The notes beneath the pieces were generated by a model. It was given only the letters and a program-made list of their open reading frames with translations, searched no databases and was not told the origin of the DNA. Positions 44,323-45,550 of a stretch of 64,000 nucleotides of DNA are shown here, piece after piece; the first letter of the stretch is position 1, and the number at the start of each line of letters is the position of its first letter. Origin of the DNA: Tequatrovirus NIC06P2. The stretch lies in the sequence record OZ035760.1, one strand, 5' to 3'. The translations under genes and the position numbers were made by a program.

Positions 44323-44886
44323 TTATTTGCTTAGTTTAGTTATTATAGCTTCTGCGGCAGCTTTTAGCTTAGATGCGGTGTTAATACGATTTTTAATTTC
44401 AGTATACGCATCGCCAAGAACATCAAGGCTATCAGAATAAACACTTACACTATTGCGTTCGCTATTTGAAATAGAACCTTTAGTTTTACGATCAAAATCG
44501 GTATACACGTCTTGAAGATCGCGTGCTGCCTTCTTTGCATCATCCAATGCATCAAGAGCTTTATTCAAAGCATTAACGTATTTTTTAGTATCGAACATAT
44601 TCTTAGAAATTTTAACAGGCGCACGTTCAGGAGTAGCTAAGGCAGATTTAGGAACCTGAGCGCCTGATGCTAATTTCTTAGAAATTTTGAAAAATGCTTT
44701 ATTGAATTTATTTTCTTGACTCATCGTAAAAGAACTATTATCAATGTTATACATTTCAATAGCTTTAGCTTTCCACTTAAGAAAATCGCCACGGTCTTTT
44801 GGGTCCAAGTGGAAGAATACTTTAGTAAGATCTGCTTCAGATGGTAATTTTGCTGCTTCGGTTAAAAATTCGGCATAGGTTTTCAT
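44323..44886 (-). CDS. internal-protein-like protein with capsid-targeting leader
   Basis: N-terminus MKTYAEFLTE-AA. Confidence 0.65.
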   Translation of the reverse strand: MKTYAEFLTEAAKLPSEADLTKVFFHLDPKDRGDFLKWKAKAIEMYNIDNSSFTMSQENKFNKAFFKISKKLASGAQVPKSALATPERAPVKISKNMFDTKKYVNALNKALDALDDAKKAARDLQDVYTDFDRKTKGSISNSERNSVSVYSDSLDVLGDAYTEIKNRINTASKLKAAAEAIITKLSK

Positions 44887-44970
44887 TTAAAATCCTTGAA
44901 ATAATTTATTGGTTATTAATTATTTATCACGTTGTTATATGTAACAGCATTCTCCGAGCGATTCAAACTA

Positions 44971-44997
44971 AAAAGCCCCAACCTTTCTGTCGGGGCT
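44971..44997 (-). terminator. intrinsic terminator (copy 1 of a 30-bp repeat)
   Basis: minus strand GCCCCGAC-AGAAAG-GUUGGGGC followed by U5. Confidence 0.55.
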
Positions 44998-45003
44998 AAA
45001 ATG

Positions 45004-45477
45004 TTATTTAATTTGCTTAGCAGACCAAATGCGGTCTTTGATAATTTTTTGGATGTCTTCAACATATTCAAGAGAGTGAACATGCGGGTTATCTTTGAAA
45101 CTATAAGCACGAGCTAGCTTTTGGCCTTCAGTTTTGATTACTAAAAGCTCTTTAAGGATAGCTTCATATTTGGAGATAATTCCTTTAACGATATTTTTCT
45201 CTTGTGTGACTTTAGGATCTGCTTTAGGAGCAGGTTTACCTGAAGCCTTTGCAAAGGCAGCTCCAGTAGCAACTAAACTTTTCCAAGCCATACTAACTGC
45301 ATTCCCTGTAAATCCTTCGGCTTTCATATCACGAGCAAATTGGAATCGTGATTCATCGGAAGCATCTTTATAGGAATATTTACCCGCGGCAATGGCAGCT
45401 TTTGCAACAGCTTGAATTTCGGTGCTAGATGCTTCATTTAACACCGCTTCATTTAAAAATTGAGCATATGATTTCAT
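45004..45477 (-). CDS. internal-protein-like protein with capsid-targeting leader
   Basis: N-terminus MKSYAQFLNE-AV; Ala/Lys-rich. Confidence 0.65.
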   Translation of the reverse strand: MKSYAQFLNEAVLNEASSTEIQAVAKAAIAAGKYSYKDASDESRFQFARDMKAEGFTGNAVSMAWKSLVATGAAFAKASGKPAPKADPKVTQEKNIVKGIISKYEAILKELLVIKTEGQKLARAYSFKDNPHVHSLEYVEDIQKIIKDRIWSAKQIK

Positions 45478-45503
45478 CTTATTTCCTGTTTTAATTCGGG
45501 GTT

Positions 45504-45511
45504 TTAATATA
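45504..45511 (-). promoter_or_regulatory. late promoter TATAAATA
   Basis: plus tatttata, 27 nt upstream of ATG 45477. Confidence 0.5.
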
Positions 45512-45523
45512 CTTATTTATACT

Positions 45524-45550
45524 AAAAAGCCCCAACCTTTCGGTCGGGGC
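45524..45550 (-). terminator. intrinsic terminator (copy 2 of the 30-bp repeat)
   Basis: near-identical to 44971-44997. Confidence 0.55.

Follow-up and report, generated by a model that had tools for sequence, protein, structure and literature searches.

In a 64,000-nucleotide (nt) stretch of the genome of Tequatrovirus NIC06P2, a T4-like coliphage (record OZ035760.1; hereafter the window), two minus-strand genes between rnaC and e.8 encode proteins that start with the short leader known from the internal proteins (Ips) of the T4 head. The genes, here termed ipA (45004..45477; 157 amino acids (aa); leader MKSYAQFLNE) and ipB (44323..44886; 187 aa; leader MKTYAEFLTE, then Ala), lie exactly where the original prediction, made from the sequence alone, had put two leader-bearing open reading frames (ORFs). 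They are previously unnamed Ip-class genes at a new site and come with one unexplained published phenotype. The interpretation we favor, with somewhat better than even confidence, is that two unrelated Ip genes, each in a self-contained cassette, are stacked at the terminator of the tRNA/rnaD/rnaC unit and make up a third Ip locus. That both products are new internal head proteins, packaged by means of the leader and trimmed by the prohead protease gp21, we regard as very probable.

In the leader of T4 IPIII, targeting depends on residues 4 and 7 and cleavage on residues 8 and 10, and the first 10 residues suffice to package foreign proteins in T4 (PMC9026906, a review from the Black laboratory). 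Both ipA and ipB possess Y4, F7, L8 and E10 followed by Ala, in agreement with the capsid-targeting leader originally proposed for each. The predicted cleavage sites are LNE↓A in ipA, with a second LNE↓A at residue 15, and LTE↓A in ipB. Among the relatives of ipA, the leader varies in length and always ends in L-x-E or L-x-x-E ahead of "ASS". A six-frame translation of the window contained four matches to the pattern MK.[YF]..F[ILVM].E, each coinciding with the ATG that opens a minus-strand ORF, which is 400-fold above the chance level (a mean of 0.01 per window in 200 Markov-1 simulated windows). The two matches other than ipA and ipB sit at the two classical Ip loci and have exact counterparts in Yersinia phage PST, namely IpIV and IpVI. 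The first (39653-40126, minus strand; 157 aa; MKTYQEFITE; 157/157 residues identical to PST IpIV) adjoins denV at the ipII/ipIII locus, where, unlike in T4, IPII and IPIII are absent and e and denV are adjacent. The second (48370-48603, minus strand; 77 aa; MKTFKEFIAE) is identical to PST IpVI at 77/77 residues and to Bas37_0260 at 73/77; it appears to be the sole Ip gene at the ipI locus of the window, while IpVI neighbors IpV in phage Bas37.

The order of elements on the coding strand is T1, late promoter, ipA, T2, promoter-like site, ipB and T3. Terminator T1 (45528..45551, minus strand; −20.3 kcal/mol, z −3.85) is a G+C-rich hairpin, AGCCCCGACCGAAAGGTTGGGGCT, followed by TTTTT. The same hairpin is present in T4 after rnaC (at about 8830-8853 of the T4 stretch L001), and it represents the attachment point of the cassettes. 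Two nt past its T-run begins the exact late promoter that had been noticed upstream of ipA, TATAAATA (45514..45521, minus strand), 36 nt ahead of the ATG. This promoter was kept in 9/9 ipA loci examined, even where the adjacent bases differ, and is annotated at the ipA locus of fPS-90 as a predicted late promoter. Because the window shows no enrichment of the bare 8-mer (13 occurrences versus 10.5 expected), the argument rests on its position and conservation. The ipA cassette is closed by terminator T2 (44974..44997, minus strand; −16.3 kcal/mol), a near-copy of T1, and the repeat containing the two is 92% identical over 39 nt (45515-45553 and 44961-44999). A near-identical hairpin behind each gene had been expected; the pair does exist, but T1 and T2 bracket ipA, and the stem of T3, which closes the ipB cassette (44296..44314, minus strand; CCCTATCTAAATGATAGGG then CTTTTTGG; −10.5 kcal/mol), differs from theirs and is weaker. 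The sequence beyond T3 matches that beyond T1 in T4.

The exact TATAAATA is absent upstream of ipB. Comparison of loci instead identified a one-mismatch late promoter, GATAAATA, 34 nt ahead of the ATG (44921..44928, minus strand). Six other ipB loci read AATAAATA at this position, and [A/G]ATAAATA is kept in 7/7 loci. In T4, 32/50 late promoters are perfect and 9 have A for the first T, and this A(-13) change, i.e. the AATAAATA form, is the commonest natural variant (PMC2988020). Therefore, the ipB signal can be read as an ordinary variant of a late promoter, and both genes are predicted to be transcribed late. A scan for sigma-70 promoters on the coding strand between ipA and ipB gave nothing notable.

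Comparison with the T4 sequence and annotation placed both genes between rnaC and e.8. In T4 this interval is a 285-bp spacer with T1 as its sole content, and the site is vacant in T2, T6 and PST as well. Across the phage collection the interval takes four sizes, namely empty, ipA only, ipB only, and both, and one example was confirmed per state (T4, fHoEco02, EP01 and the window, respectively). The junctions of all four states fall at GGGGCTTTTT / GGGCTTTTTGG, in the terminator tails, with "GGGGCTTTTTAG" preceding a cassette and "...CTTTTTGGTATCTAG" preceding the upstream region of e.8. Given that the joints are always at terminator ends, the cassette is best defined as a leader-tagged ORF with its own promoter and terminator, inserted or lost through exchange in the hairpin repeats. 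The sequences indicate that recombination at the terminator and leader repeats has added, removed and swapped such cassettes. When the window is compared with Mosigvirus PhAPEC2, ipB has a synonymous divergence of 0.19, as opposed to 0.41 for e.8, 0.61 for e.6 and 0.66 for ipA, suggesting that the ipB cassette crossed genera after its surroundings had diverged, and transfer of ipB between genera thus appears more recent than the divergence of its flanks. A 1.5-kb query around ipA and ipB matched 690 phage records at 95-97% identity, mainly T4-like phages of Escherichia and Shigella, while a terminator scan of IMG/VR yielded 5 loci only.

The rnaC-e.8 interval is thus a third Ip locus. In the published view, Ip shuffling is limited to two loci (ipI and ipII/ipIII), with Ip genes absent elsewhere (PMC2839356), and a 2025 study likewise refers to "the two Ip loci". 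The window has an ipI-type locus at 48.4-48.6 kb and an ipII/III-type locus at 39.7-40.1 kb, and ipA and ipB lie at neither. Their location between rnaC and e.8 therefore contradicts the two-locus view; residence at one of the described loci is a feature of the literature description and not of the mechanism. A third locus built from late-promoter/terminator cassettes amends that view and provides a simple rule for finding more such genes. The arrangement resembles the PeSL cassettes of T4-type phages (Arbiol 2010; Comeau 2014), in which a stem-loop and a promoter flank small accessory ORFs, and PeSL-like elements have been described at the two Ip loci (Repoila 1994; PMC2839356, PMC4122927). 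As with PeSL, the insertion-deletion junctions between close relatives at rnaC-e.8 fall inside the repeated element. By contrast, the PeSL promoter is early and sigma-70-like whereas those of ipA and ipB are of the late TATAAATA type, and the stem of the ipA cassette, unlike that of PeSL, is G+C-rich and a copy of a functional terminator.

Both genes are real and constrained. The ratio of nonsynonymous to synonymous polymorphism (pN/pS) is 0.03-0.04 for ipA (four alleles) and 0.06-0.13 for ipB (five alleles), indicating strong purifying selection, and across 164 records from two genera, nearly all ipB sequences share 96% identity or more. Two ipB loci are irregular: in vB_EcoM_OE5505 (L018, 151-713) the gene is frameshifted into two ORFs, which could mean natural inactivation or a mistake in sequencing, and in vB_Eco_F26 (L019, 942-1064) an intact ipB is followed by an incomplete repeat of the gene's 3' end. 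Orthologues of both genes are called "hypothetical" in every record inspected. The ipB gene also appears as RB14ORF136 and as bas37_0243 of Bas37 and resembles RB69ORF149c; our literature search found no paper naming RB69ORF149c or the locus tags. The AlphaFold model of ipA (mean pLDDT 76) consists of a leader helix, a three-helix N-domain, a disordered linker rich in lysine, proline and alanine, and a long C-terminal helical hairpin, and that of ipB (mean pLDDT 62) has the same layout, including the N-domain, the disordered linker and the helical hairpin. Predicted mature ipA (16.1 kDa) and ipB (19.7 kDa) both have an isoelectric point (pI) of 9.5 and fall within the range of size and charge of T4 IPII* and IPIII*; mature ipB nearly equals IPIII* (20.4 kDa, pI 9.65) in size and net charge.

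Packaging is supported, short of proof, by published proteomics. The ipA orthologue of phage fD1 (phiD1), g140, which has few residue differences, was flagged as particle-associated when purified virions were analyzed using liquid chromatography with tandem mass spectrometry, and its neighbors g138 and g139 (e.8) carry no such flag (PMC8309999 Table S3). The papers on Sfk20 and on fPS-65/90 hold no virion proteomics. Both genes are present in the BASEL phage Bas37 (KarlGJung, MZ501089), in which bas37_0244 is identical to ipA at 153/157 residues and bas37_0243 to ipB at 183/187 (L015, 4029-4592). In the HIDEN-SEQ transposon screen, bas37_0244 was hit at 29/34 TA sites and is non-essential. By contrast, bas37_0243 was hit at 1/48 TA sites and is called Essential on E. 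coli K-12 in the supplementary table; it is the only Essential gene from endolysin to dNMP kinase, e.8 being hit at 23/23 sites, and it is unmentioned in the main text. The same method found T4 ipI, ipII and ipIII dispensable, and bas37_0260 and bas37_0261 are non-essential too (10.1101/2025.11.20.689424).

Each cassette holds a late promoter and a ribosome-binding site, then the leader-tagged ORF and its intrinsic terminator, and we propose the following pathway for the products. The precursors would be made by gp55-directed late transcription, and the 10-residue leader would deliver them to the prohead's scaffolding core, where gp21 would cleave after Glu10 at L-x-E↓A and, in ipA, probably after Glu15 as well. 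The basic, all-helical mature proteins (~16 and ~20 kDa) would then remain with the packaged DNA, enter the cell together with it, and most likely block host enzymes that attack the incoming modified DNA. An anti-restriction function is proposed because 4/4 characterized leader-bearing proteins act in this way. It had been assumed that a single injected protein has a known role, which is outdated: Ip1, Ip2 and Ip3 each inhibit one distinct type IV enzyme of the GmrSD family (PMC12373910; PMC9391042), and a fourth, Bas37_0260, is an injected inhibitor of McrBC that is needed only where McrBC is present (10.1101/2025.11.20.689424). By analogy, we put the chance of an anti-defense function for ipA and ipB at about even.

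The characterized proteins resemble ipA and ipB in the presumed mode of delivery of the latter and differ from them in sequence and locus. T4 IPIII (Ip3) shares a 10-residue leader ending in (I/L)-x-E↓A, late expression and a lack of homology to other Ips outside the leader, and its mature form, like that of ipB, is about 20 kDa with a pI of about 9.6. However, its gene lies between e and denV, no similarity extends past the leader, and it is dispensable, with GmrSD of ECOR17 as its target, whereas in Bas37 the orthologue of ipB received an Essential call, and several phages carry ipB alongside IPIII. T4 IPI* (Ip1) is a leader-targeted, gp21-processed and injected small inhibitor of GmrSD from a polymorphic, cassette-like locus, and ipA and ipB would be processed and injected likewise; unlike them, it has a 19-residue leader and a locus between trna.4 and 57B, and its solved structure was unmatched by the ipA model in the Foldseek search against PDB. 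IpVI/Bas37_0260, the window copy of which is at 48603..48370, has the same leader and comes from the same phage lineage, but it is 77 aa long with a near-neutral pI of 6.5, sits at the ipI locus and shows no similarity outside the leader. It demonstrates that an uncharacterized ORF with such a leader in this lineage can turn out to inhibit restriction. Injected Ips act ahead of any phage gene expression, and the four with known targets disarm enzymes cutting modified phage DNA, each with narrow specificity. The genes ipA and ipB, which are found in hundreds of coliphages of the therapeutic type, could serve as probes for further host barriers and in host-range prediction.

Several observations weigh against this interpretation. 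We infer the cleavage and injection of both proteins, as well as their anti-defense target, and the virion detection concerns the ipA orthologue; moreover, the fD1 particle list is not stringent, as its 113 proteins include the non-structural rIIA (PMC8309999). The ipA orthologue had no fitness effect in K-12 versus CFT073 (log2FC −0.11), the sole comparison examined, and the HIDEN-SEQ text does not list it as a hit; for the ipB orthologue such a comparison is precluded, as the library lacks insertions in it (10.1101/2025.11.20.689424). Instead of evolving fast, both sequences show strong conservation. Neither protein resembles known Ips, or solved or predicted structures, beyond its own family: no family was matched in Pfam, sequence-profile searches of PDB gave nothing informative, and Foldseek against PDB and BFVD found no fold match outside their own families. 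In comparisons with characterized type IV restriction inhibitors, only the leader aligned. Such absence of likeness is no argument against the function, the known inhibitors being mutually unrelated. Finally, the Essential call for ipB, unlike the dispensability of T4 ipI, ipII and ipIII, could point to a structural role.

A simple accessory role does not account for the ipB phenotype in Bas37. We raise the tentative possibility, which we consider doubtful but worth stating, that ipB is the first leader-targeted Ip to be indispensable to its phage on K-12, either because it disarms an as yet unrecognized chromosomal barrier of K-12 to the incoming DNA of this phage type or because it is a new obligatory component of the head core borne on a mobile cassette, with rnaC-e.8 being a third terminator-delimited hotspot for injected effectors. 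The call may also be an artifact of the screen specific to this locus. A general artifact of late, terminator-insulated genes is made less likely by the insertions found in T4 soc (17/17) and alt (174/179), but hoc, inh and wac are acknowledged discrepancies of HIDEN-SEQ (10.1101/2025.11.20.689424).

One way to account for the phenotype is that ipB is conditionally essential and neutralizes either a defense still present in the K-12 strain used for screening or a toxic activity that the phage brings along. There is precedent in the same study, where dmd is Essential only because K-12 has RnlAB and Bas37_0260 is required only with McrBC (10.1101/2025.11.20.689424), and the patchy presence of ipB is typical of accessory counter-defense genes. 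Nevertheless, we consider this explanation rather unlikely: K-12 supports the growth of T4, T2 and T6, all of which lack ipB; no target is known; and the host of the reference library, if it had the knockout background, would already be devoid of McrA, McrBC, Mrr and EcoKI. The possible noise at this locus also counts against it.

Alternatively, the two proteins, ipB especially, could be structural, with the role of basic head components in the core or in DNA condensation that this phage lineage requires to assemble heads or package DNA, instead of being effectors in the host. This would explain why bas37_0243 resists insertion while the neighboring e.8 and ipA tolerate it, and it is consistent with the likeness of mature ipB to IPIII* in size and charge, with the lysine/proline/alanine-rich disordered linkers of both proteins, and with the conservation of ipB across two genera. 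However, it is difficult to square a structural requirement with the viability of close relatives that mostly lack ipB, including T4, T2, T6, PST and many ipA-only phages, and T4 ipI, ipII and ipIII are dispensable. Furthermore, ipB coexists with IPIII in at least six phages (Shfl2, G3F10, PhAPEC2, phiE142, phiC120 and EcNP1), so that we rejected it as a substitute for a lost IPIII, and the deposited OE5505 genome has its frameshift-split ipB. We therefore judge a structural role to be improbable.

Two unrelated genes in stacked cassettes also explain the data better than the recent tandem duplication of one capsid-targeted gene plus its terminator suggested by the original prediction. The repeated hairpins, the 76% identity over 42 nt between the leader-coding stretches, the shared predicted domain layout, and the match of each protein along its full length to the remote-homology cluster phrog_2280 could all be taken as traces of such an event. 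Yet the BLASTP alignment of ipA with ipB is confined to the first 11 residues, profile-profile comparison by hhalign gave a probability of 28% over a 20-residue C-terminal stretch, and Foldseek gave an E-value of 0.33. In addition, many phages have ipA or ipB alone, and the repeated hairpin amounts to the pre-existing rnaC terminator plus one copy, bracketing ipA. The resemblance of the cassettes is that of the regulatory hairpin and the leader-coding stretch, and a recent duplication was rejected as very improbable, although an ancient common origin may exist. The phrog_2280 assignment was not accepted as proof of homology, having no backing from pairwise or profile comparison. Orthology to T4 IPI, IPII or IPIII was likewise rejected, since these align with ipA and ipB over the leader only.

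More distant relatives were few. An exhaustive phmmer search recovered a single one for ipB (P0027), with 31% identity and the leader MITFNEFLNE. This 204-aa protein is encoded on a T4-like metagenomic contig (L011, 1419-2033); the gene right after it (2092-2526) encodes an ART-PolyVal/DUF3990 protein (ADP-ribosyltransferase-like), and nothing notable lies upstream. The N-domain of ipA (AGKYSYKD..SRFQFARDMK..GF) occurs at 50-58% identity in T4-like phages of Klebsiella and Yersinia (P0021, P0022), Klebsiella phage KpV477 being an example (L010, 2341-2731). Its fusion to a different C-terminal domain in those phages suggests domain shuffling in this Ip family.

That the leader is a hitch-hiking recombination module on unpackaged proteins is scarcely credible, for although the leader-coding stretch is among the repeats shared by the cassettes and could persist for recombination alone, its key residues are kept despite DNA differences (MKSYAQFLNE, MKTYNEFLMTE, MKFKEFLAE, MLEYSEFLKE), the ipA orthologue was detected in virions, and the IPIII leader alone packages foreign cargo.

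The minus-strand gene order around the locus is that of T4: tRNA cluster, segB-like gene, tRNA-Arg, rnaD/rnaC, e.8 and e.6. The homologues of rnaD and rnaC, small stable RNAs 3' of tRNA-Arg, close the tRNA transcription unit and delimit the ipA/ipB locus on its upstream side (45602..45866, approximate, minus strand). They were placed by comparison with T4 because the Rfam scan reported no family but tRNAs above threshold; both are annotated beneath the query match in RB27, RB6 and T4T. The downstream border is the e.8 homologue (43818..44081, minus strand), 87 aa from an internal ATG, identified by phrog_2678, the T4 annotation and sequence comparison; in the listed ORF, the phrog_2678 match spans residues 19-105. 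A 58-aa ORF (43573-43749, minus strand; phrog_5461; 'ORF130' in PST) replaces the unrelated T4 e.7 (111 aa) and represents a further small replacement within the same hyperplastic stretch. At the segB position, between tRNA-Arg and the remaining tRNA cluster, is a GIY-YIG homing-endonuclease-like ORF (45948-46721, minus strand). Its listed GTG start overlaps a predicted tRNA-Tyr (46660-46746, minus strand), which has no counterpart in the T4 annotation, and its true start is probably further downstream. A tRNA with a CAU anticodon, called 'Met' by ARAGORN, corresponds to tRNA-Ile in the T4 annotation.

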